Numbered from the whole stretch's first letter, positions 1 to 36,897 are shown. The stretch: 45,849 nucleotides of DNA, filler included, from Jimgerdemannia flammicorona (GCA_003990765.1; 2 parts of 2 records of this genome joined end to end with filler, not necessarily neighbours in it); one strand, 5' to 3'. Notes: generated by a model from the sequence alone, not told the origin. Program-made: numbers and translations.

Positions 1-290
1 CCCCTATCTGATCTCCCTAGGGCCCCCCCCCCTCCTCCTCCACTCTCTCTCGATAGAAGACCACTTTGTCAACCACTATCTCCACCCTCCCACCACTCTG
101 GCTACAGATCCCTTCCATCAGACAGTAATGTCACCCACCCTGGGGACCCCAACCAACCCACTACCCAGTAAGAAGATCACCCATCAACTCCTCCCATCTC
201 ACTAACTTCTCCTGCATCTCTGTCTATCACCCTTCCTTAAAAACAAATAGCCAATGTCCAGCCAATCCTACCCACACTACAATTACCCAG
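1..290 (-). mobile_element. 5'-truncated 3' part of an L1/Tx1-like LINE (same family as 36899-42817)
   Basis: Aligns by eye to 37000-37290 (accactttgtcaaccactatctccaccctcccaccactctg vs actactttgtcaaatacaatctccatcctcccaccactctg). Translation GLAGHWLFVFKEG matches RLTGHWLFVFEER. Confidence 0.85.
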
Positions 291-299
291 AAGCAACTT

Positions 300-1431
300 G
301 TTTCAGATAATTGAAGATTTATTTTTAAAAAAAAACAAAAAAAGCCAATAGATTCAATGGTGGCTGCTGACAAGGAAATATGAGCTGAGGCTCTAGGTGA
401 AAGTGAGTGAGATATACTTAGAAATGTTGTCAGAGTTTTGGAAGTAAGTGGTGATTGCTCTGGCTCTATACTCATTTTGTCTGCCTCCATACTCATTTTG
501 TCTGCCTCCACACTCATTTTGTCTGCCTTCATATAACTGCCAGTATTTCGATGCTTGTACAAAGGATATAGTCAAACAAATGACCCTGATAATAAGCTTG
601 GCAATATCAGTATACAACCTTCTGATTGACTAGCTAGAGGATAAGCTCAAGGACAGGCTGGAGGATTGCAGTGATTTACGGTTGAGCCTAGATCAGAGAG
701 ATGCCATAGAGATTGCTCTAAGCAAGCTCAGAAAATACTACTCTCAAACAGATACCACTGTATACTCAATCAGTACAGGTATATCGATGTCAGCATGTGG
801 CCATTGCCCCTTCCAAAACAGAGAAACCCCCATAAAAACTCACTCTTTCTTTTCTTTAAACAGTGCTGAACCTATGCTTAAAGCTACAATACTATAAAGA
901 TCAGGGCTGGGAGCAGCGCTTCATTGAGAGAACCAAGCAGGCTATAATTGAAGTATACTGGGAAAACTATATGCCACTGTAAGGTTCCAGCTGAAGTCCA
1001 GATGAATATACCAAGGGATTCCTCCTGTCCCACATTTATCTCAGCAGAAAGAGGAAGAGAGAGTTGTCAGTAGAAGAGCTGCTGTCAATAGATGAACTTA
1101 CCATTTACCTCACCAGTGACCATATGATCCTGCTGGAGAGTACAGAGGTGCTCAACTGGTAGAAGGTGGGTTGTTAGGCAGATGTTGGGCCAATTTAACC
1201 CACCAATCTAACCACTGCTCTATCTACTGGGGCATTCAGCTACATCAAACAGACTTCCCCAGCCTGTATAGTATGGCTCAGGACTACTTGGCGATTCCTG
1301 CCTCCAGTACTCTCATCAAGTGGGTGTTCTCAGATAGGGTGGACCTTGTTGCCCCAAAGAGATATACACTGAACACTGAGACAATCCAGGTATGTATATG
1401 TCTGAAGTCTTGGTGGGGCTCAGGCTACTAA
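300..1431 (+). pseudogene. hAT transposase, family 1, C-terminal part with introns, decayed
   Basis: AIEIALSKLRKYYSQTDTTVYSIST, then hAT dimerisation domain FPSLYSMAQDYLAIPASSTLIKWVFS...LNTETIQVCICLKSW. In-frame stops are present; introns near 444-543, 779-862 and 1166-1239. Confidence 0.9.
471..533. repeat. 21-bp tandem repeat x3 in a transposase intron
   Basis: ctcattttgtctgcctccata repeated three times with small variants. Confidence 0.9.
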
Positions 1432-1584
1432 AATTTGGCAGATCCTGGGGGTTCATGGATAAGTTGGTTGGCCTTGTGGAATATTTAATATTTTTCAAAA
1501 AAAATAAAAAGGTTAAAAAAGCTGAGAACTTGGCCCAGAGTTTGCAGCTTGAGTGGGGCAGTGGTCGGCGGTGTTGGCAGCAGC

Positions 1585-2160
1585 AGCAGAGGGAGCACAC
1601 AGTATTTGCAGCCCTCCACCAGCAGCAAGGGGCAGCCTCAAGCTATCAGTACCCAGGTTGGTGAGCAGGTTAGTGGGTGGGTACAGGGTTGGCAGAGGGA
1701 GCATGCAAAATTTGCAGCCTTCTGCCAGCAGCAAGAGGCAGCCCTAAGCCACAAGTGTCCAGGTTGGGGGGTTGGCAGAGGGGGGATAGGCAGGAGGGGG
1801 GGTAGACAGAGGGAGCATGCAAAATTTGCAGCCCTTCACCAGCAGCAAGGGGCAGCCTCAAGCTGTCAGTATCTGAGTCAGTGGGTGGGATCAGTCAGCA
1901 GAGAGAGCATGCAAAATTTGCAGCCCTCTGCCAGCAGTAAGGGGCAGCCTCAAGCTGTAAGTGTCTGGGACAAGCAGGGCAGGCAGAGGGAGCATGCAAA
2001 ATTTGTGGCCCTCCACCAGCAGCATAGAGACAGCCCCAAGCCACCAAGGAGTCTGGATCAGAGGGTACTTCTAGTGGTCAGAGGGTACTTCTAGTGATTG
2101 GAGGGTGCTTCTGGCAGTTAGAGGGTGTTTCTGGCAGTTGGAGGGTACTTCTAGCAGTTG
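1585..2160. repeat. Internal repeats of hAT family 1: ~55-bp unit x5, then 20-bp tandem x5
   Basis: gagggagcatgcaaaatttgcagccctccaccagcagcaaggggcagcctcaagct recurs in 1585-2025; gagggtacttctagtggtca-like units occur in 2060-2160. Confidence 0.85.
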
Positions 2161-2432
2161 AAGTCCACCACAGATTCAGGCCCCATCACCAGTTCAGGTC
2201 CCATAAGCACCCTGGCCCTGTGCTGCAGCACTGCACTGGCGGCACTGTAGAGCAGGGCCAAGGGGCCAGTAGGGCCCTGCATAATGGCTAAGCCAGTGCT
2301 ACAGAAGAGGTGCCCAGCCCAACCCTCCACATAAGACCACCCAACCTATACAAAATGACTGCCTAACTCTCACGAAAGACTGTCTATCCCTTATGAAAGA
2401 TTGTCTAACCCTTACAAAAACTGCTCCACCTA

Positions 2433-4410
2433 TCAGTCCCAGGCCTTGATGAGCCTATCATCTATTGTGAGTACAATGACTATTGTGTCCAAGCTCTCCT
2501 TGAAGGTAATAGTGCTATAGTGGCTATGTGGTTGGAAGAGGATAGCCATATTGGCCACAAATGGGACCTCAAAACCATAGGTGAGGTTGTACCAGACTCC
2601 TCTGCTATCCTCCCAGGTTGGGCCCTTCCTTTCTGGGATGTAAAACATTACTGGGGTGACATTGTTATCTGTGTGTATGGGCAGAGAAACATTGCACCTA
2701 ATGTATCCTGATGTGACATGAGTATACAGTTGGGTGAACCCTTGGCCCAGGACCTCATACTGCCAGGCTGTACTGGTGGATACCTGCTCTTAGTCCAGCC
2801 CTGAGAGCCCCAGCTTGGAAACCTGCCAAAACAGATGGCAACTGGTCAGTTCTTTTTGTATATAGAGGGGCAGAAACCCCCTGGGCTGCAGAAACCCCCT
2901 GGGCTGTAGCACCCCAAAAAAGTGGAGCTCCTCACCTTATACAGCATGCTAAATTGCACCAAGAATGTATGTACAGCCACACTGAGATCACTACCAAGCT
3001 GGCCTGCTGTATGCTCTACTAATCAGCTTAAAGAACCCCAGATCATAGCTGCTATCACCATACAGGCCATGTCATACTTGTGTGCAGTTTGCTCTTCAAC
3101 AGCACTTCTAAAGTTCCAGTAGGGGTACAGAATCTTGTACACCTCTGGAATTGTATCAAAAAGAGTATGTTAGTGAAGAGTGTGATTTATCTAGGGAGGA
3201 GAAAAAAAAAAGAGAGATGAGTGTAGAGGATTTCAGAACTCTGGAACCCAACCTTCACCAGTATTGCAGTATACCCAATTTCTGTCCAAACCCCCCCTTC
3301 TTGCTTTTTTCACTCCCTCTTTCCTGCCATCCAGTATTTGATACAATTCTTACAAATCTCATTGATGTGGCAGCAAAGCCTATTACCATAGAGATTCCTT
3401 ATCACCATCACAACCACCTCTCTGCATTCATTAATAATGGTATGGCTCTCTTCATTGTTGGTTACTCCTGCTGGCCAATGGACCCCTTGGTTAAGAATGA
3501 TTGACTCTAATTTGAATATAGACCCCCAAGCCTTGATGACAATACTGGTACTGCTCAAGCTGAACATCTTACCCTCAAATTTCTCTATTTGATCAGATAC
3601 TAGATATGGTTGAACTTCCAATGGAACTGAGCCCTGATCTGAGGGATTGAGATAAGTGTGCAGATGGGTTATGTACAGATGGGTTATGTACAGATGAGTT
3701 GCATGCAGACAGATTTCATGCAGGTGGGTTGTGTGTGGGTTTGGGTGTTTTTTAGAGAGAGACCATGTAAAAAATGAAATTAAATAAAACACAGAGATGG
3801 GTATTTCCAAAAAAGAGTGTGAGTGAGTGAGTGAGTGAGCTGCATGCTGATGAGTTGCATGCCGATGAGTTGCACAAGTTGTATAAGATTGCTCACAAAG
3901 GCTTGCTTCTATTCCTTTTGAGACCTCTATTATGTAATACATTGACTCAATAGCTCAGCCACCAAAGGCATGTACTACAATGTCTGCCAGCCTTTCTTTA
4001 TCTTAATCAGATGTTGCAAATAAAGTTGGCAGATCTTGCCATAGAGCTGTAGACTCTAAGAAAAGTACAAGGTAAATTGAGTTATGCTGGGGAAATTTAA
4101 ATAAATATAAGTAAACATGTGGCAGCCAAGTGAGCAATCTACATCTACTATCGGCTGCTCCAAAAAGGCTGCCATATACATAGCTATGAGGTCTGTAAAT
4201 TCTGAGGTCCAAAGGGCCACCATAAGTTGTTGCCAGAATTCTCCCTCATCCCTGCTATCGTCACCACCATTGCCACCACCATTGCCATCACTATTGCTAT
4301 CACCACCACCATTGCTACCATCATTGCCCCTTTGGCTCTTGATGAGCAGCTTGTGTGCTGCCCATATGAGAAAGAATCTAACATTATCAGTAGAAAGTGT
4401 GTTTCCACCT
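2433..4410 (-). pseudogene. Multi-exon TET/JBP-like 2OG-Fe(II) dioxygenase, cargo of hAT family 1
   Basis: Last exon reads GYIRCNVSLPIHTDNNVTPVMFYIP...SRGVWYNLTYGFEVPFVANMAILFQPHSHYST...IVIVLTIDDRLIKAWD*. HxD is at 2667-2675, followed by a GG-x-aromatic...YG motif and a decayed HGT-like motif. An upstream exon reads SHTIINECREVVVMVIRN. Splice sites lie near 2823 and 2935. Confidence 0.65.
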
Positions 4411-4639
4411 TAAATACTCCCTCTTTTGATGATTATTGTAGGGTGAAAAATAAATAGACTAGACTAATGTACAAATTAAGGGCTGCTGTTTTGTTTGCTT
4501 GTGATATGGCAGAAAGAACAAAGAAAAAGTATAAAGAAAAGAGAGGGAACAAAAGAAAAGGGTGATGTCACTAAAGTACAGCAGGAAAAAAAAAACAAGA
4601 GCAAAATGAATAAAAGAAAGAGTGATGTCACTAAAGATT

Positions 4640-4800
4640 TCAATCCAGATGGATCAATCCAGATAGATCAATCCAGATAGATCATCTGGATGGATCAATC
4701 CAGATCAGATCACAAGACCAATCTAAGTTGATTCAAATCCATCACATAATGAACCTGAATTAAATCTTATCTGGATCCACTCCATCTGTTTGAAGCACTA
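4640..4800. repeat. Subterminal repeats and putative right TIR of hAT family 1
   Basis: ggatcaatccagat-type repeats end in ...tttgaagcacta at 4800. Its reverse complement TAGTGCTTCAAAC resembles the family-2 terminus TAGTGCTCTGCAAAC. Confidence 0.6.
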
Positions 4801-5759
4801 TCTAATAGTAAGGAGTGGAAAAGACTATGGGTGAATATGGCTCTCATTGAGAATACTACTTCTTGAAAATAAGAATAGGTATATCAAAGGAACAGCAAAA
4901 CTATATAGTCACTCTGTGTGGCAATGGAAATAATAATTTATTAAGTGAGAGTAGTATATAGTTATCCAGCTCCTGCAATGCCAATTGGGATCTTGATGAC
5001 TAATGTTATAATAAGTTTGAAGACTATAATAAGTCTGATAGTAAGTCAGAATACTATAATGAGAAATATTGTAATAAGTAAATGAAACTTTTTAAAACAT
5101 TATGAGATAATACACTATCTATATCAGTATTTTGGCAAAGTCTAGTAATTAATTATGTGATATTTTTCAGCTTATGAATATTCCTTAGATATAGAATTTT
5201 ATATTAGTTTTTTGGGTTATATACAGTTCTAGTTTTTTATATATATTATATATTGCTTTTTATTCTAGTTTATATTGTTCCTTCTTTTTTTTTATTTTGA
5301 TATACATATATATCTTCTTGAGTGGGAGTATTGAAATTATAAGTTGATATATATTTATATGACTTTATACTAATTTGTTTATATCATTTATATGTTATTA
5401 TTTATAGTATCTAAAAGTATATAATTTATATAATAAATAAATTACTTCTTCTATTTATCACAATATACTATATAGTTACATATAATACTTCATATAGTTC
5501 TGATATAGTAAAGAGATTTATCTTAATCAAGATCATGTTCTGCTTTAGAGACTTAATTAAGATATATGCTCTCTTGGTACTAATGCTGTTATCTGAATAT
5601 AAATAGAGAATAGATAAGTAATATATATAAATTATTAGCTTGATTCCACTATATAGTTATATATAATACTTTATATAGTTGTGAGATACTATAGAGATTC
5701 AGGTTGTGTTTTACTTCAGAGACTCAGCTAGAGAGTATATACTCTTATTACCATACTCC

Positions 5760-7586
5760 ACTCACCTACATTCCTCTACCCACTCTGCCCATCTGTAATT
5801 CTTTATCTGCCTCTAATATGTTTCTCCAAAAACCAATCATACTTCTATCTGATGATACTACTTAGACTATTCTATGGAGATTTCCACCATTACTTACTAC
5901 TCTCCACTCCACTATATAGATATATGAACTCCAACATTATTCTGATCAGTCTATCTCTCAGTCTACCATTACCACTATTACTCAAGGTGTACTTCTCAGT
6001 TTTGACAGCTCTCAGTACTGCCTCTTAGCTCACAACCACTGTTCTGCTCTAGACTATCAGATGCCATCATCTCAAACATTATACAGAAATTTATGGTGGG
6101 TTGGGTCTGTGGTCCATTTTTAGTCTCTCTATTTGTCAACTTCCACTCATTCTCCCTCAGTGCTGTGGCTAAGATAAATTCTGCCACTACTTAGCAATAT
6201 ATTCATGATCTGTCCTGGCCCCATAACAGTGGATCAGTGAATGTAGGTATTGATCATGATGCCTTTATATTGTCTTATATTCATTTCAATAATATATTGA
6301 CTTTAATCTACCAGTTCAGCTAAGATTATCTGCTATCAAAGATTGATCTCACTGATACCTATCACTACATACTCATTTACTCTGCTGATTGGGAGCTGCT
6401 TGGTTTTGAATAGTCGGGTCTGTTCTATTTTAACTACTTTACTTCTTTTGGCATATCTTCCTCACTATTTCTCTTTACTTTTTCACTGAGCTCCTCACAT
6501 AGATAGTACTTCAGCATAGTCTCTAGGCTCTCATATATTATATAGATAACTTTTTTCTGGTCTCTGAACTGATCATCAGAGCAGTATCCACTGATCTCCA
6601 ATTATTCCTATCTCTTAGCTGAGACCTCAGCTGGTTTATTCAAGAGCAGAAGGTTGAGAGGCTGTTAATATCTCTAGTTTTCCTAGGCATTGAGCTCAAT
6701 TTAGTCATAATGGAAGCTCATCTCCCTATAAGCAAACTTGATGCTATCATAATACTTCTTCATCAGTGGTCTATGTAGACATTTTATACAAGGCCCTAAC
6801 TTCAATCTCTCATCAACTCCTTGGCCTTCATTAGTAAAATCATCCTGCCAGGACAGCCCTTTCTCTGGTGTTTTATCAATCTACTCTCTGGTAACTCTAA
6901 CTTCTACATCTCTTTATCTGATATATTCTATACTAACATTCAGTAGTGGCTTACTTTTCAACTACTTTGGAATAGCATTTCAGTCATTTACTCAGTTGAG
7001 TGGTCTAGTTTACCTAATGCCCATCTATGGATTGATACTAGTAGTAACTTAGACTTTAGGGCATATTATGAAGGATTGTGGTTTTTGGCCCCATGGTCTC
7101 TTACTTTAATGCTATATGATATTTAATTCAAAGAGCTCTATGCTATTGTAGCAGCTACTGCTACTTAGGATACTCAGTGGGCTTTCTATTGGATCCTTCT
7201 TCATGTGGATAATCAAGCAGTTATTGTTATTATCAACTTGGGTACTATATACAACTCTCTTCTACTTGAGCTTCTTCACTAACTTTATTTCCTCATAGCA
7301 TCACATGCCTTCCAACTTTATACTACATATATCTCTATCTCTGATAATGGCATCACTGATGCTTTGTCCTGCTCTGACCTCTCTTACTTCCACTGTCTTA
7401 CCCCCTATATACAGATATATCTGACAACAATTGGTATCATCTGCATACTATTCTTCCACTCATCATTACCTTCTTTCTGTAGTTTGAACTAGCAAAATCT
7501 ATATGTCACTTATATTTTTTGGAACAATACAGCTTTCCTCAATTCTGCACCCTTTACAGTAACTATAGTTCCAGCAATACTCTATC
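5760..7586 (+). mobile_element. Degenerate DIRS/Ngaro-like retrotransposon (RT-RNase H)
   Basis: IHDLSWPHNSGSVNVGI, KIDLTDTYHYILIYSADWELLGF and LLFGISSSLFLF (RT); KELYAIVAA, LLHVDNQAVI and DNGITDALS (RNase H). Many stops; truncated by the hAT end at 7587. Confidence 0.8.
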
Positions 7587-7621
7587 TAGTACATTGTAAA
7601 CTGAGCTGACCTATATATATA

Positions 7622-8010
7622 TTTAACCTGACCCAGAATTATACATCATCTATCTTTAACCCAACTCAGAAATATACATCACCTATCTTTAACCTGACCC
7701 AGAATTATATATCACCCATCTTTAATCTAATCTAGAAATGTACATCACCTATCTTTAACCCAATCTGGAATTATACATCACCCATTTTTAATCTGACCTG
7801 GAATTAAACATCACCCATCTTTAACCTAGCCTAGAAACATATATCACTCATTTTTAACCTGACCCAGAATTATATATAATCTGTCTTTAACTCAATCTGA
7901 GAAATATATGTAACCTGACCTGAGAAATATATATGACCTGATCTGAGAAATATATGTAACCTGACTCTGACCTATATTTAACCTGATGTAGACCTGTCTT
8001 TAATCTGCCT
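7622..8010. repeat. 33-bp subterminal tandem repeats of hAT family 2 (5' end)
   Basis: About 8 copies of tttaacctgacccagaattatacatcacccatc plus shorter units; same unit as at 18390-18740. Confidence 0.9.
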
Positions 8011-8133
8011 TTAAGCTACAAGGTACCAAAAAATATATATATTACACATCTAAGATCTATATTTAAAATAAACAAACAGAAATAAATTAGAAGTAAATCA
8101 AAAAAATAAAAAACTTATCAGTGTGAATAGATC

Positions 8134-9295
8134 TTACTCTTCATTACTATAAACCAACTGATCCTCCTCCTTCTTATATTCTGAACCATCTTTCTCTATA
8201 TATTTCAAACCACTTTCCTCTATATCCTCCTCCTCCATATCTTTCTCTGTGTCAACCTTCTCTATGCTAACCTCTATTTCGTCCTCTATGCCAACCTCCC
8301 CATGTTTCTCCATACCAACCTCCCCCATGCCAACCTCTCCATATTTCTTCATACTGACCTCCCCTGCACTAACCTCCCCTACACTGACCTCCTCCATGCC
8401 AACCTCTCCACTGACCTCTCCACTAGCACTGACTCCTCTACTGATACCAACCTCTCCCACTTCTCTATCTCCTCTACCACCACCCTCCTCAACAAAATGC
8501 ACAAGCCTGCCATCTATCAGTTATATATAAAGCATTTTGTCATTGTTCACTGGTACTCATTCAAATAGGGCCAGCAGTTTTTCATATACATCTATAATGA
8601 CCATTCTACCTAGACAATCTCACTTATTCCACACTTTGATATTCATCTTGAAGCTAGTGTAGTATGATGAATGTTCTATGATTTTTGTATAGTTTTCTAT
8701 TACTCTTATGACTTCTTGCCTCAGTTGGTTATCATGTACTTTCTTAATGCATTTATTGGCTACAGTAAAAGCATGTCTAATATCTGATTTGTAAGGCCTT
8801 TTCTCTGTGAGATTTGGGGCATCCAGGAAATTGGTTTAGCAATACTTCCAGGTAGTGCTTGAGCAAACTTGATGGCAAAAATAGCAATTGTAGCAAGATT
8901 TGCACTCTGGCCCAGACTTAGAAGCTAGAGGATATATATATTTAAAAAAAAATTTGGACATTGATTTTAAAAGAAAAAAAAAAAAACTAACTTTTTTGAG
9001 CTGCATTATTGAGATCTGGTGCGGGGCCTTGTGCTTGTAGACCAGTGGCAAGCTAGTAGTCAAGCTGGAGATTGGGGAGCTGAGAGTCAGCAAGCTGGAA
9101 GTTGATAAGCTTAGCAACCTGGGTATCAGCAAGCTTGGCAGACTGGGTATCAGTAAGCTTGGCAGGCTGGGTGTCAGTAAGCTGGGCATCTTTAGGACAC
9201 TAAGCTTTGAGATGGTAAGCTGTAGTGTGTCAAGCTTGAGGGGGGCCAAGTAAATACTTATTGGCTAGGTGATCATATCTACATGTTCTCAACAT
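8134..9295 (-). pseudogene. Unknown two-exon cargo gene of hAT family 2, copy A
   Basis: ATG at 9295 is equivalent to 22535. Exon 1 has LADTQPAE-type repeats; intron ~8925-8992. Exon 2 reads NFLDAPNLTEKRPYKSDIRHAF...QEVIRVIENY and is followed by a Glu/Gly-rich repeat tail. Confidence 0.5.
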
Positions 9296-9569
9296 AGCAG
9301 TGAATTAAGTGAGGCAAAGCAAAGGACAAAGTGAAGTAAAGGATAAGATGAAAAGAATGAGAGGTAAAAGTAAGCTTTCAATATCTTAAATATTCAAAAG
9401 CTATAACATCTTTCAAAAGCTCTTTTAGAATCTCTCTGAAATCTCTTTCAAAAGCTCTTTCAGAATCTCTTCAAAATCTCTTTTTGAATCTCTTTGAAAT
9501 CTCTTTTGAAACCTCTTTCTAAATTACATATTGTTTGCAATCTGAGGAATGAGGGTGAGGAAGGTGGAG

Positions 9570-11632
9570 TGTAAGAGGGTTGCTTTTTAGGGTAACCATT
9601 ACATAGTTCTGGAAGGGTTTTCTGGAGGTTCTGGATATTCTAGAAGACCATTTTCTTATGGTCAAGATCAATTTCGTATGGAGTACATCCTCTACGCTTA
9701 TTGATTTCAAGATCGGGTTGACGTCTCAACCAAAGTCCTTTCTCGGACTAGTTCTAGGTGTTCAGGATTTTCCATATTTCAGGAAGTTCAAGAAACTAAG
9801 ACCAGCTTAGTTGAATTGGTGTATCGCTGCAGACAATACCCAATTAGGAAATTTCGTGACGGGGTTAGGAGTGGGACCTAACAGAGAGCGGATTTACTTA
9901 AGAGTGGTTTGTGGGTTATGGAATAGATTTATTTGCTATTCATGATATTGCTATACTAGGAGTAGTTTGTGTGAAGGGATATTGTGGGGAAGTATTCAGG
10001 AATGTTCTTGTGTATTCGAGTCTGAGATTCTGAGGTCTGGGGGAGGGGGTATTTATACTAGTGAGAGGCTATCTGGACTATGCTAGATATGGATGTAGCA
10101 CTAAGTGCCTTGCTGAGTTGGAATGCAGTTACATAGTACAAGTGTGATCTGATATGTCAAGAGATCATCTGACTGCTGAGTCAGTTCACAGTTACATCAT
10201 ATGAGGCTAATCTAACTATACTATGACTGCTAGTCTATTTATGGGTTTAGGCACTGTCTGGGTAGTCTTCGATGACATCACTATCGATTGCATCATCTCT
10301 GATGAAGTAGTCATCTAGGAAGAGTGGTTTGCGGATTACTTCTCCTTGTTCGCTGAGGTAATAGTACATTGGAACTTCATCTCCGTCCTACAAGATAGCA
10401 CCATCTGTTTTGTATGCTAGATAAGGTGTTGGTGGGCGAAGGATGGGTGTATTGTCTTCGCTTTCATCAGATTCACTATCTGCGTACCTTCTATAGATTA
10501 CAGCACTATGAGTTGCGGGGTTGTAGTAAGCTGGCAGCTGTGGTTCATGTCGCTCATACTCAGGTGGTGGAGTGGTTGGTTCAATCTCGAGGGTTGTCTG
10601 GAGGTACAGGTTGTGTTCTCCGGTCTCTTCATTGTAGTTGAAGTAGTTGGGGGTGAACGCGGGTTGGTATTCGTGCCAGTGGTCATTGTTCCAATAAGTC
10701 TTGTATGCAGTTATGAACTGTTGTAAGTTCATTGGCAAGGTTGGCAGTGTGATCAGGGTTGGCAGAGATCCTTGGCTAGAGGTCATGTCGGCGTCAGAGG
10801 GATCATTGTCTTCTGCTTCATCTTCATTGAAGTAGATTATATCGTAGACATCCTTCATGGCGTATCCGACTTGAGGCATTTGCAGGATATGGTCACCAGG
10901 GTGCGGGAAGGTTCTATCTGTGGTCTGGACGTATTCGAGGTACTTGTGGTTGAGTTCTTGTATCATGTCATCGATTTGGCTATAGAACAGGGTAGCAATC
11001 ATTTCACTGATAGTGACTCAGAGGCAGGGAATAAAGGTGCTATACTCATAGAAGAGTTCTTGATGTTTGCGGGCGATGAGCTTCTGGTGTTGAGACATCT
11101 GGGTAATGTTTGTATCATGGTGGTGTTCAACCATGTCTTCCAGGAGGCAGCCAATCTGGTAGTAGCTTGAGATTTGTCCGATTTCGTGAGCCTTGCTAAG
11201 CATGTTCAGGGCATTCCATTGGGCTTCTATGAAGTAGAGGGGTGCCAGGCTATGGATATTCATGAGGGGTAGAGGGGGTGTGGCTCGGTTGACAATGGCA
11301 TTCCAAATGTCAGCGCGGATATGGTTATAGATCTCGGTGGTCATATTTGTGTATTTGAAAGTTGTAGTTGTTGTTTGTTTTGGTTCTCTGTTTTGATGCA
11401 TCTCAGTGCTCGATATATATGCATTTAGTCCTGATTGGTAAGATTCTGTTTGTGTAAATCTTGTATTCCGTGACTTCGTATTGACTCAGCTTTGTGTGCT
11501 GTGACTTCGGTTTGACTCAGCTTTGTGATCAAGCAGGTGATTTCCAGATTCATTTGGAGGTCATGTGAGATTTCAGTGGCTTGTTCAGAGGGTGACGTAT
11601 AATTTCGGTGGCTTAGAGGTTGTATGCTTACA
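9570..11632 (-). mobile_element. Solo LTR1 (2063 bp)
   Basis: TGTAAG...CTTACA termini with a perfect 5-bp TSD tggag (9565-9569, 11633-11637). The empty site is visible in hAT copy B (~22140). Minus-strand TATAAATA at 10050-10057 and AATAAA at 9928-9933. Confidence 0.92.
10388..11344 (-). pseudogene. LTR-encoded (U3) ORF, ~318 aa, one in-frame TGA
   Basis: ORFs 11018..11401 and 10388..11002 are in the same frame, separated only by TGA at 11018-11020. Homologous to the ORFs in LTR2 and LTR3. Confidence 0.8.
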
Positions 11633-12697
11633 TGGAGGAATATGTGCAGATTGTGCAAGAGGAGTGAAATGCAAGAGGAGTGGAATGTAGTGAGGAAAGC
11701 TTCAGATTATAAGTATAAGTATAAGTATAAGTACAAGCTTTGCTCTGCTCAGCTGATAGCTGATATCACATAATATCAGCTTATTATCAGCTTGTCAGAC
11801 TGAGTGGAGCAAAGCTTATACTTACACTTATACTTGCAATCTGGAGCTTTTCTCACTACATTCAACTCCTCTCTGTATAATTTAGCAGGTTCTACATAAG
11901 CCTTAATTGAGTGAGGTTTGTAACAATGTTTAAGCAAGGTTTATAGTACATTTGAGTAAGATTTGCAGTGAGATTTGCAGTAAGGTTCAAGTAAGATTTG
12001 CAAGTAAGATTAAAGTGAGATTTGTATAAGCCAGGCTTTATAAGCCTTGTACTTGTAAGCTCAGCTAATAGCTGATATCACAGATATCAGCTTATATACA
12101 TATTATATTAGCTTGTAACTAAGCTTGTTCAGGCTTGCAAGCACAAGGCTTGCAAAGCCTAGCTTATACAAATCTTGCTCAAACATTGCTTGCAAATATC
12201 ACTTTAATCTTGTTTGCAAATTATGCTTTAATCTTGCTTACAAATCTTACTCAAACATTATTACAAACCTCACTCAATCAGGGCTTATGTAGAATATGCT
12301 GAATCATATAGAACACACTGAATTATACAGAATATGCTGAATTTTCAAAGTATATTTACTGTTTACAGTTATGTAATAGGTACTAGTTCAACACCTATAT
12401 ATATTTATTCATCCATCCTTTGTCCATAATTGATCATTAGCTATTGCACCTTATACCACCACCTCACTGCTCTCTATCTCACTGCCCCCCAGCTCACTGA
12501 CTCTTGTTCCAGGCCCCACAGTTTCTGGCTTTCCCTACTGCTTGCCACTCCCCCCCAACTCTCTGCCCCCTAGTTCACTGCCCCCCCAGCTTGTTCTCCA
12601 GTTTGTCACTCCCTAGCTTGTCACTTCCTAGCCACTTTCCAGCTCTTGGCCTCCCACTCAAGCTCCCAGTCTCCACCATCATCAAATACTTTTTAAA

Positions 12698-14420
12698 ATA
12701 TCTAAAGATCAAGAAGTATATTTAGGAGAAATCTCAGAACTGTCAGATGATATATTAGAGGATATATTGGAGAATATATCAGATGATATATCAGATATCT
12801 CCACCAGTTCATTATCATTAATGAGTATAAGAATAAAAATAAAAACAAAACCTAGTGATAGCTGAGTGTAGAATCATACAACAAAGATAGTTTTATATAT
12901 TGTTCTAATGGTTGCATTCATAGGGGTGGTTGGTCTCATCAGTCATAAGGGTAGTCAGTTATAATGGTGGTCAGTTGTAAGTAGTTGAGGTTCTAATATA
13001 GTCTCATATCTCTCTATTTAAATAGAATTTACAAAGTAAGCTCATCAGTTGTAACCATTGCACAACTTGGAGCTATATATTAAAGGATGGCAATATCAAC
13101 AATCTTAAATGATATCTCTGGAAGTATTATAATGCTATACTCTTATCTCTCCAGCATGCTGATCTAAGAAAGATGATATTATGAGTATAGATAGAATAGA
13201 ATTCAGAAAGTACTTAGGAGGTTATTAGAAAAATAATTTATCAAATTTTATTATTACAAATAGGAATACACTAGCAAGACTTTAAGTGATGAAAAATTCT
13301 ATTGATTAATTGCCAACTTCATTGTCACTGGATATCAGCCATTTTCCACTATCAAAAATACTGGCTTCAAATATCTCCTTCACATATTATACTCTGATCT
13401 GGTCCTTCTATTGGCTGATATGATTTTTCAAATTATTTGAAAGAAATTTAAACTATTGTAGACTCAAGTAAAAGTAAGGCTAGCAGGGCTCAAGTTAAAG
13501 GTGTCACTTATACTTGATTGTTGGACATTAGATATTAATGTCAAGGCCTTTCTTGGAATAATAGTCCATTGGATTGATAGGAAATAACAGCCCATTGGAT
13601 TGATAGGAAATAACAGCCCATTGGATTGATAGGAAATAACAGCCCATTGGATTGATAGTGATTAGAAGATATATGATATTATCTTAGACTTTGTGAATAT
13701 TATCAAAATAATACACATGGGGGCCAATCTTGTGAAATGTCTAGAGCTGGTAATAGATGATTTATTGCCTAGTAACAATCAAATCATTGCTGTTGTATGT
13801 GACAATACCAGTAACAATAATACTCTGTTTGAGAATCTCTATCATCTGCTCACTCATATATACTGTTTTAGGTATACATATATTAAATCTCATTGTTCAT
13901 GATACTTTTGGTTCTCTTAGTGAGCCCATTGGAAAGCTACAGAAGTTAATAAAGAAGATCAAAAATTCAGCACAATGATAAGCACAACTGGCAAAGATCT
14001 TTAAATCCTCCAGAATTCCCATTTTGAAGCCTCTCTTAGATATTATGATGAGATAAAGTTCTATATATGAAATATTAGTACATGCTCTGGAGATTCATAA
14101 GGTAAGATTTTGAATCTATTTGTATAGATTTTGGAATATGATTCAGAAGTATTTTGGTACTAAATAAATTGATATTACATCCAAATAGGGCTTGGATATA
14201 TTGTGTACCATGGATAAGCAAATGAGCAATATATCTGAAGATGCATGGCAATAATTTGAATTAATTTGCCAATTTCTTGAGCCTTTTGCCAAAGTAATAA
14301 CCATGATGTTAGCTTCAAAGTATTCTACAATAACAGCTGTTATTCCACTATTTAATTAGCTATATGATCACTTTGAAGATATCATTAATATATATCAAAC
14401 TGGTGAATATTTTAATCAGG
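12698..14420 (+). pseudogene. hAT transposase, family 2 copy A (BED finger and DDE core, decayed)
   Basis: Start codon mutated to ATA. SCNHCTTW...NNLK, LILDCWT...AFLGIIVHWID, VVCDNTSNN. A 27-bp triplication lies at ~13565-13660. Confidence 0.9.
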
Positions 14421-15284
14421 TATATTGTGGCATTTGGTTTGTATCCCTAGTTGCTTCTGGCATGGCTCAATGTGCTACTTGGTGAAGCACACGATGTATA
14501 ACTGAAGGCATTAGTGATGTTCACGGGTTGATGGTCATGTGACAGGTCATTCAAAACATGCGATAATAGTAGGAGATCATTTGTTTGTTGGCTCAGGACA
14601 TCGATGGCTCAATTGTTTAGTAGAAAAGGGCATTTCCTGGTGGCGATTAACTTGGCGGCGATGGTCTTGAATTTATGTGGCGACAATGGGCTTGCTCTTT
14701 ATGTGGTCAATTAAAGCAGTCTGTGGTGCAGTAGGTCAGAAAAAACAGAGGTTGACAGCTCGCTCGTCCGTCTTGACTTGTTAACTTGAAAGGTTCCTGG
14801 CGGTCATTCAGGTCTTTGGCAGTGGGTTGGTCTTTGGCAGTCTAGTATCCTTTGGCTGGGTATCCTTGGGTTTCTGGGTCTTGAATCTCGAATAGCGGTG
14901 GTTTGAATGGTGGTCTGAATGCATGGCAGTCATAGTCTTGAATCCTTGGCTGGGTCTCTGGTCTCGAATGGTAGCAGTCGGGTAACATTTTCTTTCCATG
15001 GCAAGAGAAAATTCTTTAACTCAAACTTCCAAGCAATCCGTTGCTCTAGGTTGTTATCTTGTTCTCAGAATTTATCCGGTCTCTTGGAGGCAGTGTGTTT
15101 TCTCTGTAAAACTGTCTGACTGAGGCTTTATTCACTCTAAGAATATGGGTTATTTATACAAGTTTGCTAGCTATGGGGGGGGGGGCGTGACTAAGGCTAA
15201 GGTATACTACATTGTGGTGAACTTATGCTATTGGTTTGCATGATGCGAGGTGCAGGCTTTTGTTTACTACAGATTGGGTTGTAG

Positions 15285-15500
15285 GGGATAGCAACGCTGA
15301 ATTCGGATCTGCTGACAAAATGCTGAAAACGGTGGTACTGGGTAGCAATGCTGGATTCGGATGAGCTGATATGATACGATGATTGTTGCCAGAAATGGTT
15401 GTGGAGGGTGGCAATGCTGAATTCGGATCTGCTGACAAAAGTGCTGAAAATGGTGGTACTGGATAGCAATGCTGGAAACGGACTTGCTGACAAAAGCTGG
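15285..15500. repeat. Tandem enhancer-like repeats within LTR2 U3
   Basis: gcaa(c/t)gctg(a/g)attcggatctgctgacaaaa...ggtggtactgg repeated 3-4 times between the ORF stop and the TATA box. Confidence 0.75.
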
Positions 15501-15525
15501 GTTCTTACAGCTGATGGGCGGTACT

Positions 15526-16512
15526 CTAGAGGAAATAGTACCCTTCGTCCATGGCGGGCAAATCTTGCTGGGTTGTGATTTCTTCTTCATCATATCTCTC
15601 CTCAAAAGGGGGAAGCACTGGCCAAGAGGTGAGGGGGTAGAAAAGTGGCCAGTCATCTTCAACAACATTCTCCAACCCTTGAACAGCTTGAATATGGACA
15701 GAGGACTGGTAGACTCTCTGTTGCTCCTCCTCTTCTTCTGAAGACTCATCAGTTTCAGTGTCAGAGGGGGTTTCTTCAGGGGCAGGGCCTTGGAGTTCTT
15801 GGGCCTCCTCTTTAAAGACAGGAACTTCTTGGGCTTCTTCTTGATTTGGTTCCCAAATGATGAGGTGTGAATTGTGGCTGACAAGGTGGTGGGTGGTTGG
15901 GGTAGCTCCAATGGGTGCTTCTATGGTAATGGGCGGTCCTTCAAATATCTCCATAAGACTTATTAGGTGACCTTGATGGTTGTCTCGGAGTGGGGTGGTG
16001 TGGAAACCTGGCTGAGTAGGTTCGGTTTGTTGGCTTCCTACGGCGATGCAGTTGCTGCCAATAGTGTTGGCTACTTCAGATTCTATCCAGTCAGCATCTT
16101 CAGTTGAGAGGTGGGAGAGGCTGCCAGCTGTTACTCCTTGCAAGTGTGCTATAGCCCAGGGAATATGGCGGAAGATTTGATGGACATGGAGGGCTCTCTT
16201 GATTAGCCGGCTGGTGGTTAACATTTCGGCAATGAGGTCTTCCTGGTTGTCTTCTTGAGTCTCATTGTGAAGGCGGTGTCTGATTTCATAGTCATGCCAG
16301 AGGGTCATTCATTCAGTAGTATCTTTGAGCTGTTGGGTCATTATATACCAGTAGTTGATGAAGTGTCCAAGGTCCTCGGTGTAGAAGTTCAAGTGTTTGG
16401 AAGTGTCTGGGCACCAGATGGCCTTCTTGATAGCTTCAAAGATCAGGGTCTTTGGGCCAGGCAAAGGGGTAGAGCGGCAGGAGGTCTGGTTGGATCGGCG
16501 AATGGGAGGCAT
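15526..16512 (-). pseudogene. LTR-encoded (U3) ORF, ~328 aa, one in-frame TGA
   Basis: ORFs 16309..16587 and 15526..16308 abut in frame across a single TGA. Core reads WHDYEIRHRL...ALHVHQIFRHIPWAIAHL, with an acidic tail. Confidence 0.82.
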
Positions 16513-16719
16513 TGTGTGGTGGGTACTTGGTTCTTTGGTGCTGATCCCTGAGACAGAGTATGGTTCCTTAAATAATGTGGTCTTCATTTTGGCTCAGATT
16601 ATCTTGTCTTCTTTTGGGATGATCACCTAATGGGTCAGGCTGTCTATTTGATTGTCACGCCATTATGTTGTCTGATCTTAGCAGTCACTGGTACTCCGTT
16701 CTCAATTATGTACGTCACA

Positions 16720-17242
16720 ATATATTCTTAGTGCAATTTAGTATACTATATGAGATAAAGAGCTTGACTTTTTTTTTATATAGCTTAAGGACTTCTGTCT
16801 CCTATATATAAAAAGAAAGAATTTAACTGAATGCTGTCTGTTTTAGTAGATTTCTAAGCTAGAGCTCTCAGGGCTGGATGAAGGGTAGGTATTCTTTAGT
16901 ACTATCTAGCAATATGAGGTTCTGAGCCAAGAATTCACCCAATTATATACTCACATCACATTGGAGTACATTAGGTATAATATTTCTCTACCTATATATA
17001 TAGACAACAATATCACTCTAATAATATTTTATATTCCAAAAAGAAGAGACCCAACTTGGGAAGACAGTAGTAGTATCTGATATAATCTCATCTATAGTTT
17101 CAGGATCTTATTTATAGCCAACATGGCTATTCTATTCCAACCACATACCCTCTATGGCACTGTTACTTTTAAAGAGAGCTCAGATACTACAGTTGTCACA
17201 CTTATAATAGATAGTAATAGACTTATTAAGACCTGGGACTAG
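16720..17242 (+). pseudogene. Second copy of the TET/JBP-like gene (last intron and last exon)
   Basis: Inverted homolog of 2433-2970: QYEVLSQEFTQLYTHIT...PIYIDNN...FIANMAILFQPHTLYGTVTF...LIKTWD*. Confidence 0.75.
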
Positions 17243-18357
17243 CAGGTGGAGCAGTTTTATAAATAAGTACCTTTTATATAGATTAGATAGTCTTTTGTGA
17301 GAATTAGACAGTCTTTTGTAAGAGTTAGGTAACTGGGCACCTCTTTTGTTTTATAGTACTAGTTTTCAGCTTTTAGCTTTTTTCTGAGCTTTACTAACTC
17401 CTTGGCCCTGCTTTGTAGTACCACTGATACAGTACTATAGTATAGAGTAAGAGTACTCATACTCTAAATCTGTACTAAAGTCTGATCTATACTAGAGTCT
17501 GATTGCTTGATGTTGCTTTTCATAGTGAGTTGGTGGGCTGCAAATTCTGTGTACTCTCTCTGCTATATCCTATTCTTGGGGCTACTCCATACTGCTGACA
17601 GAGGGCTACAAATTTTGTATACTCCCTCTGCTGACCTGGTTGACCCCTACTCTGCTCCTTTTTTATTTTGCAGTACTAGTTTTTGCTTTTACTGAGTCCT
17701 ACTGGTCCCTTGGCCCTACTGGTCCCTTGGTTCTACTTTGTGGTACCACTAGTACAGTACTAGTATAGAGCCAGGGTGCCTATGAGATCCAAATCTATGC
17801 TAAAGTCTGACTACTTGAAGATATTTCTTACAGTAGATCATTGGGCTGCAAATTCTGCATACTCTCTCTAACCCAGACTTTTATACTAACTTATAGCTTA
17901 AGGTCATCCCTTGTTGCTAGCAGAGGGCTATAAATTTTATATACTCTCTCCACTGACCCTACTGACCTCCACTGATCCTCTACTAATCCCACCAACCTCC
18001 ACCCCACTTAGACTGGCAAGGGACCACAAATACTGATATACTCTCTTTACTGACCACTTTGTACCCTGAGCTGAACTTCCTCTTTTTTTTTTTTTCTTTA
18101 AATAATTTATAAAAAATAATTTATTTCTAACTCTTTTTTGTTTAAAACTACAGGACTTGCTCAATTTTAGCAGCCCATACCCCACCAAGACTTTAGACAC
18201 ATATAGGTCTAGATTGTCTCAGTATTCAGTATATATCTCTTTGAGAAAATGAGATCCACTCTGTTAGAGAACACCTACTTGACTGAAGCACTGGTGGTAG
18301 GAATAGCCAGAGAGTTCTAAGCCATACCATATAGGCTGGGGAAGTCTGTTTGATGTA
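17243..18357 (-). mobile_element. Second copy of hAT family 1: internal repeats and transposase 3' end
   Basis: 18162-18357 is the reverse complement of ~1240-1440 (HQTDFPSLYGMA...); same ~55-bp repeats and palindrome. Cut by the family-2 terminus at 18366. Confidence 0.85.
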
Positions 18358-18777
18358 TCTGTGACTAGTGCTCTGCAAACTCGACCCGATTAACCTGAAA
18401 CCTGACCTGTAAAACAGCCAACCCGGAATTAGACGTCACCCATCTTTAACCCAACCCGGAATTATATGTCACCTGTCTTTAACCTGACCCGGAATTATAT
18501 GTCACCCGTCTTTAACCTGACCCGGAATTATACGTCACCTGTCTTTAACCCGACCCAGAATTGTACATCACCCGTCTTTAACCTGACCTAGAAAGATACA
18601 TTACCCATCTTTAACCTGACCTGGAAATGTATGTCACCTGACCCATTATTTACCCTTAACCCAAACCTGAACCCGACCCCTGAACCCGACCCTGAACCTG
18701 ACCCCTGAACCCGACCCTGAACCCAACCCTCTGAACTCTGCTCTGAAAAAATGATTCGGAAAATATTTGGATAATAT

Positions 18778-21134
18778 TCAGAGTAATTGAAAGTGAAAAA
18801 TATCTGAAGACCACCAAGAATCCAAACACATGCATGCACGAATTGTATTTACATACAAGCTGTTTCGATATTCAGTCACTAGCTCACCAGCAATAGAAAA
18901 AATACATTCAGATGGAACAGATGTTGCCGAAATAGCAAGATAATTGCGAGCCATTCGTGAAAGATTAGAATATACCAACTGATTTCACCATCACCAATCC
19001 AGTATATCTATACGAGGATCAGCTGGATTCTCTGACAAATAACTGAAACAGAGAAATATGAGTGAAAATTAACCAAGCCAATCAAAAAACATAAAAACAA
19101 CACCCACCATTCAAGCTCATCATCCACATCAATGCACTGTTTCTTCTCATATATTGAGTTGATAAAATCATCAGCATCATGAGATATTGAGGGTATAATG
19201 ATAGCATTAACAGGCTTATACTCCTTTTCCCAGATACGTTCCATCTGATTCTTCCATTCATCAATTAAGGATTTTTTCCATTGCTCACAATGGAAATAAT
19301 GCATATTGATACGTGAATCTAAGGCCGAAGCTATGCTGTATAATAGTGTCGTCTTGCAGTAATACTTTAGAAGTTTCGTACGTGCATTCTCAGCAGCGGT
19401 AAGCATTATCTATAAAAAATAAAAATAGACACATATTACTTTCCAATTACTTACTAAATTAGTTCCTAAATTCATAAATAAAATTACTTTCAAAATCATA
19501 TATATACCTGATTAAAATGTTCACCAGTTTGATATGTATCGATGACATCTTCGAGGTGATCACATAGCCGATTAAATAGTAGGATAACAGCCGCTATTGT
19601 AGGATACTTCGAAGCTGATATCACAGTTGTCACTTTGGCAAAAGGCTCGAAAAATCGGCAAATCAATTCAAATTGTTGCCATGCATCTTCAGATATATCG
19701 CTCATTTGCTTATCCATAGCACACAATATATCCAAGCCCTATTTGGATGTAATATCAATTTATTTAGTACCAAAATACTTCCGAATTATATTCCAAAATC
19801 TATACAAATAGATTCAAAATCTTACCTTACGAATCTCTAGAGCACATGCTAACATTTCATGTGTAGAACTCCATCTCATTGTAACATCTAAGAGAGGCTT
19901 CAAAATGGGAATTCCGGAGGATTCACAGACCTTCGCCAGTTGTGCTTGTTGTTGTGCTGAATTTTTGATCTTCTTTATCAACTCCCATAGCTTTCCAATG
20001 GGCTCGCTAAGAGAACCAAGAGCATCATGAATGACGAGATTCAACACATACCCAAAACAGCATACATGAGCAAGTGGATGATGGAGATTCTCAAACAGAG
20101 TATCGTTGTTATTGGTATTGTCACACATAACAGCAATGATTTGATTGTCACTAGGCAATAAATCATCTATTACCAGCTCCAGACTTTTCGCAAGATTGGC
20201 ATCCATGTGTGTTATTTCGCTGATATTCACAAAGTCTAAGATAATGTCATGCATCTTCCAATCACTGTCAATCCAATGGGCTGTTATTCCAAGGAAAGCC
20301 TTGATGTTAATGTCTGATGTCTAACAATCAAGTGTAAGTGACACCTTTGACTTGAGCCCTGCTAGCCTTGCTTTCACTTGAGTCCACAATAGTTCGAATT
20401 CCTTTTGAATAACTCGCGAAATCGTATCAGCCGATGGAAGGGCCAGATCAGGGCGTAATATGTGAAGGAGATACTTGAAGCCAGCATTTTCGATAGTGGA
20501 GAATGACTGATATCCAGTGACAATGAAGTTGGCAATTAACCAATGGAAATTTTCATCACTTAAAGTCTTGCTAGTGTGTTCCTATTTGTAATAATAAAAT
20601 TTGATCAATTATTTTTCTAATAACCTCCTAAGTACTTCCTGAATTCCATTCTATCTATACTCACAATATCATCTTTCTTAGACCAGCGAGGATTCTCAGC
20701 ACGCTGGAGAGGTAAGAGCATGGCATTGTGATACTTCCAGAGATGTCGTTTAAGATTGTTGATATTTGCCGTCCTTCGATATATAGCTCCAAGTTGTGCA
20801 ATGGTTGCAACTGATAAGCTTACTTTGTAAATTCTATTTGAATAGAGAGATATGAGACTATATTAGAACTACAACCGCTTACAACCAACCACCCACCCTT
20901 ATGACTGAGACCAATCACTCCTATGAATTCAACCATTAGCACAATGTATAAAACTACCTTTGTGGCATGATTCCACACCCAGCTATCACCAGGTTTTGTT
21001 TTTATTTTTATTCTCATGCTCGTTGGTGATAATGAACTGGTGGAGATATCTGATATATCCTCTGATATATCCTCCAATATATCATCCGATGGTTCTGAGA
21101 TTTCTCCTAAATGTACTTCTTGATCTTTAGACAT
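18778..21134 (-). pseudogene. BED-finger hAT transposase, multi-exon, nearly intact
   Basis: SWVWNH/CNHC...LKRHL; LDC*TSD...FLGITAHWID; CDNTNNN; CFGYVLNL; DVTMRWSST; LSRMARNYLAISATSVPSECIFS. Has a 1-bp frameshift near 20765 and a TGG>TAG change. Confidence 0.93.
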
Positions 21135-21487
21135 TTCGAATGTTTGATGATGGCAGGAACTGGGAGCTTGAGTGGGAGGTTGAGAGCTGGAAAGTGGCTA
21201 GGAAGTGGTGAGCTAGGGAGTGGCGAACTGGAAAACGAGCTGGGGGGGCAGTAAACTAGGGGGCAGGGAGTTGTGGGGAGGCGGCGAGCAGTGGGAAAAG
21301 CCAGGAACTGTGGGGGGCAGCGAGAGGGAGAGCAGCGAGGTGGCATGCGATAGCCAATGATCGATTGTGGACAGAGGATGGATGAATAAATACGCATGGG
21401 TGGTGAACTGGTACCCATCATGTAACTGCAAACAGCAAACAGCAAACAGCAAACAGCAAACATACTTTGGAGATTCAGCATGTTCTG

Positions 21488-22090
21488 CGTTGAGCAAGGT
21501 TTGCAATGACATTTGAGCAAGGTTTGTGGTGCATTTGAGCGAGATTTGTAGTGAGGTTCGAGCAAGATTTGCAAGTGAGATTTGTAAGTGAGATTTGCAC
21601 GTAAGATTAAAGCGAGATTTACATAAGCCAGGCTTTGCAAGCCTTGTGCTTGCAAGCCTGGACAAGCTCAGTCACAAGCTGATATGACGTATATATAAGC
21701 TGATATCACATGATATCAGCTATCGGCTGAGCTTGCAAGCGCAAGGCTTGCAAATCTCGCTCGAACCTCGCTGCAAATCTCGCTCAAATACACCACAAAC
21801 CTCGCTCAAACGTCATTGCAAATCTTGCTCAATTGGGGCTTACGCAGAACCCACTGAATCATACAGAGAGGAGTGGAACGCAGTGAGGAAAGCTCCAGAT
21901 TGCAAGCATAAGCGTAAGCATAAGCATAAGCATAAGCATAAGCTTTGCTCTGCTCAGTCTGACAAGCTGATAATAAGCTGATATCATGTGATATCAACTA
22001 TCAGCTGAGCAGAGCAAAGCTTACACTTGTGCTTATGCTTACACTTATGCTTGCAATCTGGAGCTTTTCTCACTGCGTTCCACTCCTCTT
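21488..22090. repeat. Two adjacent long inverted repeats
   Basis: Arms ~21488-21665/21728-21835 and 21869-21960/22003-22090. Both centres contain agctgatatca...tgatatcagct-like palindromes. Confidence 0.85.
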
Positions 22091-36630: not shown

Positions 36631-36897
36631 TGGACTACCAAACTATTGTGACCAGTAAGGTAGCAGAGAAAGGGGCATCAAACTTCTTATCTTTAACTGT
36701 CTTGTTATCTCTTAGATTGCTTGTAAGGAAGTGTGTATAAGTAAACTTAACTGACTTTATTTCAGAGGAAATAAGATGGATATTTATACAAAATATAATT
36801 CAATGGTTATTAAGATATAAAGTTAAATATAAATTCCAATAACTAAAATAAAATGCCAGGACAGGAAAAATTACTAAGTTTCAGAGTCGGCACTGAT

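Follow-up and report, generated by a model that had tools for sequence, protein, structure and literature searches.

The question raised by the locus described here is whether a decayed DNA transposon carried, as cargo, its own gene for a DNA-modifying enzyme. The locus (positions 290-4800) lies in a 45,849-nucleotide stretch of DNA from Jimgerdemannia flammicorona, hereafter called the window, and an initial annotation made from the sequence had described it as a hAT DNA transposon with a TET/JBP-like dioxygenase gene. In fungi, DNA-demethylase-like enzymes encoded by transposons have recently come to be seen as a means of countering methylation-based silencing; three types of them (PU, AG and PE) on 11 carrier lineages have been catalogued (Kojima 2025, PMC12730594). 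Our best explanation is that the locus is a fossil hAT element, here called hAT-A, whose cargo is a dead gene from an uncatalogued lineage of Tet-like Fe(II) dioxygenases that resembles the PE type; to this whole chain we assign a probability of about 0.5. The locus would then be the right-hand part of a dead, deamination-decayed DNA transposon of the hAT superfamily, the left part of which would have been cut off by insertion of a long interspersed nuclear element (LINE), and the passenger gene would lie downstream of the transposase gene in the convergent orientation.

The convergent pseudogene and its relatives

The minus strand between 3483 and 2436 holds a pseudogene that aligns collinearly with the members of a small fungal family of unannotated proteins. 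It is arranged tail-to-tail with the hAT-A transposase, i.e. downstream and convergent. The open reading frame (ORF) 2789-2436 was scored by phmmer against 1.84 billion representative proteins (E<=0.001), and eight proteins were returned, five of which were accepted as relatives. The best match was P0001 (136 aa, 71% identity, E=2.8e-52), followed by P0002 (E=7.7e-24), P0003 (E=6.4e-9), P0005 (374 aa, E=5.9e-8), and P0006 (E=1.1e-6). The remaining three (P0004, P0007, and P0008) are long repeat proteins and were dropped. An additional member, P0009, came from a word-based search, and in the metagenome contigs L001 and L002 the family is represented by an intact gene of three exons. In a profile search of a 5.8-billion-protein set with the alignment A1, P0005 and P0001 were among the matches listed.

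Homology extends upstream of the last exon. Residues 92-166 of P0005 align with 3474-3253 (tblastn, E=8e-5), the family profile matches ORF 3313-3954 (E=1.7e-4), and exon 1 of L001 matches 3420-3268 (tblastx, E=0.005). The probable middle exon (Table 1) also matches residues 185-210 of P0005 by eye. The initial annotation had drawn a spliced gene from 4410 to 2433, convergent on the transposase. The portion 3483-2436 of this model is supported by homology, whereas 4410-3484 is not: neither tblastn nor the family profile gave a match of 3484-4410 to any relative.

It should be mentioned that the contig segments L001 1-3666 and L002 1-2870 are AT-rich (GC 0.34-0.35) with a normal CpG ratio (1.2), and that the ORFs downstream of their gene (2320-2945) gave no Pfam match. 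P0003, a last-exon protein, represents a 28-member cluster at 90% identity that is spread over many short contigs, some of its members being degenerate (P0006); this cluster looks multi-copy.

The last exon contains the segments that had been read in it initially. The HTD motif is at 2667-2675, with the His codon at 2673-2675. The GG-like segment reads 'RG..WYNLTYGF', where the relatives have GG, and the 'AILFQPH..Y' segment, which ends in the YGT noted before, reads 'AILFQPHSHYST'. The distal His site is Tyr (TAT) at 2517-2519 and also at 17153-17155 in a second, inverted and more heavily decayed copy of the locus (copy 2; Table 1), in agreement with the codons reported in the initial annotation. 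In the intact relatives the site is His, followed by G[TS], in all six sequences that cover it (P0001, P0002, P0003, P0005, P0009, and L001). P0001, P0002, P0005, P0009, and L001 carry HxD (reading HTD or HVD), P0003 and P0006 carry HxN, and the His of this motif is invariant across the alignments A1 and A2. The HxD/E...H iron-binding triad expected of TET/JBP enzymes is present in the intact relatives with HxD.

Both copies of the gene are pseudogenes. The reading frame of copy 1 is interrupted by stop codons at 2790-2792 and 3310-3312; the last exon of copy 2 has three internal stops, and the His of its HxD motif has also been changed to Tyr. The His-to-Tyr change at the distal site requires a C-to-T substitution outside CpG. 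Because this change is common to both copies, it seems to have been inherited from a common ancestor that was already inactive.

Linkage of the gene to the hAT element

The transposase of hAT-A is recognised by its dimerisation domain. ORF 1120-1428 matches Dimer_Tnp_hAT (PF05699; E=8.7e-12, 45.1 bits, cut-off 21.4), which places the domain at approximately 1225-1413 on the plus strand. The frames from approximately 530 up to this ORF are hAT transposase-like by eye, with a tblastx match to the second hAT of the window (19328-18805). The C-terminal third alone is present: the RNase-H-like DDE core was not found in the window, a repeat array and a LINE fragment interrupt the remainder at approximately 290-530, and a search for relatives longer than the hAT-A fragment gave none. 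The source of the LINE fragment is the LINE at 37-43 kb, where RVT_1 and Exo_endo_phos matches lie on the minus strand (38279-38818 and 40251-40697). As a 5'-truncated copy of the 3' end of this LINE occupies 1-289, hAT-A is broken on the left, and any remainder would be outside the window. Accordingly, the transposase named in the initial annotation is confirmed by its C-terminal domain, but as a 3' fragment whose left edge at approximately 290 is a LINE junction. The ratio of observed to expected CpG is 0.03-0.06 over the two 3-kb bins of the element, as compared with approximately 1 in the host genes of the window.

Copy 2 provides the best support within the window that the two genes moved as one unit. 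It contains the transposase end, the tandem-repeat spacer (17530-17990; tblastx and alignment), and the last exon. The self-matches of the ~106-nt repeat of this spacer in copy 1 extend to approximately 2044 (self-blastn 1575-2044). The two copies are 75% identical over the transposase block and 72% over the exon block, where they differ by 115 transitions and 21 transversions. Most of these differences are additional C-to-T or G-to-A substitutions on the side of copy 2, which has a GC content of 0.33 (0.48 in copy 1). Copy 2 is interrupted at 18366 by the terminus of a further hAT element, hAT-B, and near 16716 by an insertion that is considered younger because it contains CpG. Thus, transposase end, repeats, and last exon are contiguous in two old, diverged copies with different flanks, which argues for co-mobility of the transposase and the gene. 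From these features, the gene is probably cargo of the hAT element.

It should be added that, when 16716-17257 is compared with 2436-2975, 91 of the 136 differences are C-to-T or G-to-A changes outside CpG, and TpA is counted 71 times in copy 2 versus 32 in copy 1. This suggests that a process like repeat-induced point mutation, or another non-CpG deamination, may have acted on copy 2 besides CpG decay.

Several points weigh against the linkage. The match between the copies ends near 2975, so that joint movement is proven for 1237-2975 only. Position 2975 itself was considered as the element end and rejected: further homologous exons follow in copy 1, and copy 2 runs into the younger CpG-containing DNA at this point. 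A local segmental duplication could likewise yield two linked copies, and no transposase was found within 3.7 kb in L001 and L002 (eight ORFs scanned). These two contigs are 99% identical to each other, and an element boundary is therefore not visible between them. The gene might accordingly be a neighbour, or part of another transposon, beside the landing site of the hAT element, and the two copies would then be a segmental duplication of the junction. Such an origin would explain why the same non-CpG His-to-Tyr change occurs in both copies, as expected of one duplicated locus. It would also fit the distance of 12 kb between them within a nest that contains long inverted duplications (8971-14425 versus 19502-22859), the failure to find a paired terminal inverted repeat (TIR) or a target-site duplication (TSD) in the window, and the relatives on L001/L002 with no transposase nearby. 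However, the copies are 25-28% diverged and their flanks differ on both sides, a single element would account for the tandem-repeat spacer as well as for the terminus-like end at 4800, and published TET+ transposons show the same type of cargo. We therefore regard the neighbour-gene explanation as rather unlikely, and cargo of hAT-A is retained as the preferred reading.

The right end of the element is plausibly at 4800. The candidate terminus combines TAGTGCT (4794-4800) and CAAAC with adjacent 13-nt repeats, and in this it resembles the proven end of hAT-B. All five matches of the 13-14-nt repeat in the window are within 4638-4705; five of 100 shuffles also reach five matches. On the other side, the 7-mer TAGTGCT occurs 12 times in the window as compared with 6.5 expected, the terminal 24-mer has no mate in the window at <=3 mismatches, no inverted partner for the 4800 end was found within 290-5000, and no TSD was recognised. 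The TAGTGCT-type terminus proposed at first is thus present together with subterminal repeats, but it is a common 7-mer with no mate, and a complete element with paired TIRs and a TSD around both genes was not found in the window.

Table 1. Features of hAT-A, its convergent gene, and the second copy (window coordinates)
Feature	Position	Strand	Evidence
LINE 3'-end copy, 5'-truncated	1..289	-	blastn to 37003-37288, 72%
hAT-A transposase, C-terminal ~300 aa, with stops and frame changes	530..1430	+	Pfam, tblastx
Spacer between the convergent genes: 4x ~106-nt tandem repeat (1580-1981) and 5x 20-nt repeat (2061-2160)	1580..2160	.	repeat search, TRF
Last exon, Tet-like dioxygenase pseudogene (copy 1)	2436..2819	-	phmmer, tblastn, codons
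Probable middle exon (helical region before the double-stranded β-helix core)	3026..3169	-	weak collinear profile match, HMM (hidden Markov model) 172-203, E=2.4
Upstream exon, 'G-x-[YW]-x3-G-Y-T' motif region	3253..3483	-	tblastn, profile, tblastx
Putative 5' gene part (model of the initial annotation)	3484..4410	-	open frames with low-complexity Gly/Asn/Asp runs
13-14-nt subterminal-like repeat, 5 copies (one inverted), GATCAATCCAGAT	4638..4705	.	motif search; TRF period 14
Candidate hAT terminus TAGTGCTTCAAAC	4777..4800	-	first 7 nt and CAAAC as in the hAT-B terminus at 18366
Copy 2, inverted: hAT-A C-terminus (18361-18151), repeats, Tet-like last exon (16862-17257, +)	16716..18365	-	repeat search, blastn, tblastx, alignment A3

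The initial annotation knew of no described association of TET/JBP genes with hAT elements. This is outdated: twenty TET+ hAT7 families from six Puccinia species were published in December 2025 (Kojima 2025, PMC12730594). These families are similar to the present locus in that a hAT-superfamily element has a TET/JBP-like passenger in a fungus with methylation-linked decay of transposable elements. The termini are different. hAT7 elements have a 7-bp TSD and CA[AG]CG[GA]TGGGC termini, and the five consensus starts seen are CAACGGTGGGC or CAGCGATGGGC, whereas the candidate end here is TAGTGCTTCAAAC (TAGTGCT...). The enzymes of hAT7 are of the PU type (GG.MW..GWRK, FxRLGxS), and the motifs of our family were not found in the PU rows inspected for hAT7. 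In three families of the TET lineage P4, the TET gene lies upstream of the transposase and shares its orientation; in hAT-A it is downstream and convergent. As judged from these sequence features, the locus is not a TET+ hAT7 family.

Kyakuja/Dileera/Zisupton (KDZ)-associated TET/JBP genes of Basidiomycota, reportedly described by Iyer et al. in 2014, are said to be, likewise, genes of a TET/JBP-like kind that are lineage-specific, present in multiple copies, and linked to DNA transposases. They reportedly differ from the present case in the transposase superfamily and in that their enzymes are detectable as Tet_JBP, whereas our family is not.

Affinity of the protein family and its possible role

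The family very likely belongs to the dioxygenase superfamily. In the ESM Atlas, a cluster named 'Tet-like 2OG-Fe(II) oxygenase' (2OG, 2-oxoglutarate; PF20515 in 72% of members) has a feature score of 0.91 for P0001. For P0005, the best cluster by features (score 0.96) is composed of basidiomycete proteins, 15% of which have PF20515, and Tet_JBP is met in the cluster ranked 11th. The model of P0001 in the Atlas has a predicted local distance difference test (pLDDT) value of 0.69, and its structural neighbours have template modelling (TM) scores of 0.54-0.63. Those neighbours that bear a name or a family label are all 2OG-Fe(II) oxygenases, and in one of them 28% of the members have Tet_JBP. 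The family may thus have a double-stranded β-helix (DSBH)/TET fold, and membership in the TET/JBP clade seems, on balance, to be probable.

Among the published types, the PE type appears to be the closest by manual comparison. It is linked to TET only through HHpred (E=1.4 for CMD1, 19 for NgTET) and AlphaFold DB structure (E<1e-5) (PMC12730594), which would explain why ordinary profile searches fail here. Both the PE type and our family are missed by Pfam-style searches, both are in or beside DNA transposons, and both occur in Basidiomycota. By manual alignment, they have in common a '..VVIRN..' strand (MVIRN in copy 1), 'SAG', 'DG.G', an Arg shortly before H-x-acid, and the core block 'GG.F[FY]...[YH]G..V....N[TS]....[WF]......HG[TS]'. 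Over the GG...HGT block, P0001 is identical to one PE row of Table S1 at 17 of 37 positions, a hand count that carries no tool score. In addition, the family appears by eye to be collinear with the PE-type rows over the whole domain; the manual nature of this alignment is to be counted against it. Eleven motif strings of the family were also searched for in Table S1: ten were absent, and the single occurrence of 'FYNL' was in a PU-type row, ahead of HxD and at a position that is not homologous. The view drawn from these strings that the family is unlike all three published types was overturned by shorter motifs and by the PE rows.

The family also differs from the PE type. HxE is the stated hallmark of the latter, whereas the family here has HxD. 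The Arg of PE 'SAGSRS' and PU 'GWRK' is replaced by Thr in all four covering sequences of the family, and that of PE 'QRGL' and PU 'SRLG' by His, Asn, or Thr in five of five lineages (manual alignment). The carrier is also different, being a hAT element here, and relatives of the gene are found in AT-rich contigs of unknown fungi (L001/L002). A strictly conserved Arg pair holds the two carboxylates of 2OG in TET2 (R1261/R1896) and NgTET1 (R224/R289) (PMC7854593). We infer from the alignment that the motif Arg residues of the PE and PU types correspond to this pair. As both motif Arg residues are missing in the family, canonical 2OG binding is doubtful. Other conserved Arg residues, in 'GRCA' before HxD and in '[KE]R.G' after HxD, could substitute for them.

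This situation is reminiscent of CMD1, an algal TET homologue which cannot position one Arg and uses vitamin C instead (PMC7854593), and which is among the solved structures closest to the PE type according to Kojima (PMC12730594). CMD1 is, as the family here would also be, an HxD...H DSBH enzyme of the TET clade with a co-substrate pocket that departs from the two-arginine 2OG site. Unlike it, CMD1 keeps both Arg residues in its sequence, one of them pointing away, whereas the family appears to be devoid of both at the aligned motifs. On the reading of a fourth lineage that is considered below, intact members such as P0005 and L001 might depend on a different co-substrate or produce a different DNA modification, in the manner of CMD1.

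The loss of the motif Arg residues and the HxD in place of HxE are not the only points against a TET-like identity. No Pfam family, Tet_JBP (PF12851) included, was matched by the window ORFs in question at E<=1, nor by P0001, P0002, P0003, P0005, and P0006 at E<=10; for Tet_JBP, the count is 0 of 142 window ORFs. The PDB sequence searches with A1, A2, and P0009 gave 0, 1, and 1 matches at E<=10, all at chance level. AlphaFold2 models of P0005 (6 alignment rows) and P0001 (8 rows) had pLDDT values of 36.9 and 38.8 and were unusable, the alignments being shallow. The second of these models gave no Foldseek match in the PDB at E<=0.001, with generic jelly-roll chains at TM<=0.32, and no weight was given to this result. 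Furthermore, PHROGs and NCBIfam profiles gave nothing meaningful for the family, and tblastn of P0005 against phages gave matches at E>=7 only. Membership in the Tet_JBP profile family is thus not borne out, for the window ORFs and for five intact relatives alike. The TET/JBP-like identity is supported in the sense that the family is closest, in the Atlas and by eye to the PE type, to transposon-borne TET/JBP-like dioxygenases. Bacterial genomes were also scanned as a source of reference Tet_JBP sequences: PF12851 was found in none of five, in none of 401 of one phylum, and in no control genome, and DUF952 used as bait was blank as well.

The missing Tet_JBP match and the missing Arg residues conserved in the PU and PE types would also be understood if the protein were a DSBH Fe(II) oxygenase outside TET/JBP, i.e. 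prolyl-hydroxylase-like, AlkB-like, or 2OG-independent with another substrate. The structural neighbours of P0001 indeed include 2OG-FeII_Oxy_3, 2OG-FeII_Oxy_5, and HIF prolyl hydroxylase at TM scores similar to that of the Tet_JBP-containing cluster. Nevertheless, the nearest named clusters by language-model features are Tet-like (PF20515) and Tet_JBP rather than prolyl 4-hydroxylase, the order of motifs is that of the PE type across the whole domain, the N-terminal 'SAG' included, and the transposon context fits. A non-TET enzyme is thus considered unlikely. The last alternative, that these are chance ORFs in decayed repeat DNA and no gene at all, would agree with the stops and frame breaks in both copies and with the blank Pfam results, but it is already refuted by the match at E=2.8e-52 to the intact P0001 and by the collinearity of the 374-aa P0005 across three blocks.

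With a Tet-like dioxygenase as cargo of hAT-A, the following role may be considered. In the live element, the enzyme would have bound Fe(II) via HxD...H and would have oxidised a methylated base in the DNA of the element itself, with 5-methylcytosine as the most likely substrate. Such oxidation would blunt methylation-based silencing and the ensuing C-to-T decay. We infer the substrate and the role from these comparisons, and action on 5-methylcytosine is proposed tentatively, as a possibility that falls short of being probable. That enzymes of transposon-borne TET/JBP genes, including those on hAT elements, counter methylation-linked decay is a published hypothesis (PMC12730594), and the idea of an anti-decay oxidase put forward for this locus matches it. 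Both copies here, however, are inactive fossils, and therefore no decay would be countered by them at present. The locus seems to represent an end state, in which the element was not rescued by a passenger whose active site was dead. As a fossil with no present function, this single locus has its value as a lead for a genome-wide survey.

The pairing of hAT-A and its gene is probably an uncatalogued version of the kind first described in 2025, with a hAT element of different termini and a dioxygenase of a different type. If this is true, the catalogue of PU, AG, and PE types on 11 carrier lineages would be incomplete, hAT elements would have acquired genes of this sort repeatedly and out of distinct enzyme lineages, and one lineage would have an altered co-substrate site. 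It may further be asked whether the family represents a fourth uncatalogued TET/JBP-like lineage, a sister of the PE type with HxD and devoid of the two 2OG Arg residues, on a hAT carrier unrelated to hAT7, and present also in AT-rich, possibly non-Dikarya fungi. This more specific reading is doubtful; if true, it would widen the carrier and host range of transposon-encoded DNA demethylase-like genes.

CpG landscape and neighbouring elements

The window is eukaryotic and repeat-rich, with a sharp two-state CpG pattern. The ratio of observed to expected CpG is 0.02-0.09 in the transposon-rich regions at 1-9 kb and 36-46 kb, as compared with 0.97-1.24 over the host genes at 24-36 kb (DUF952, methyltransferase, and HSP20). 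Between 24-36 kb and the rest, the transition from protected DNA to DNA decayed by methylation is thus very sharp.

hAT-B is present in two copies, at 7587-14425 on the plus strand and at 18366-22859 on the minus strand, with inverted arms of up to 548 nt and a complementarity of 84-91%. Its terminus reads TAGTGCTCTGCAAAC at 18366 and, in a decayed form, TAGTACATTGTAAAC at 7587; the match of the plus copy ends at 14425. Arrays of a 33-nt subterminal repeat follow each terminus (7565-7946 and 18355-18703). A segment of approximately 2.1 kb (9569-11655) is present in the plus copy and absent from the minus copy, where the arms resume at 22108-22142. This segment has minus-strand ORFs of 93-209 aa (10391-11706) with no Pfam match. 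In the region of 9-12 kb, the GC skew is approximately +0.25 and the CpG ratio is 0.40.

The insert between hAT-B and copy 2 (14426-16715) contains CpG and is thus considered to be younger. It has minus-strand ORFs of 217-260 aa that are rich in acidic runs and gave no Pfam match. Its start, TGTGACGTACA, beside the break in copy 2, may be the end of a long terminal repeat (LTR).

The LINE at 36878-43200 on the minus strand has reverse transcriptase and endonuclease domains, and the plus strand is strongly C-rich there (GC skew of -0.3 to -0.5). A separate integrase zinc-binding domain of an LTR element is located at the end of the window, at 45188-45412 on the minus strand.

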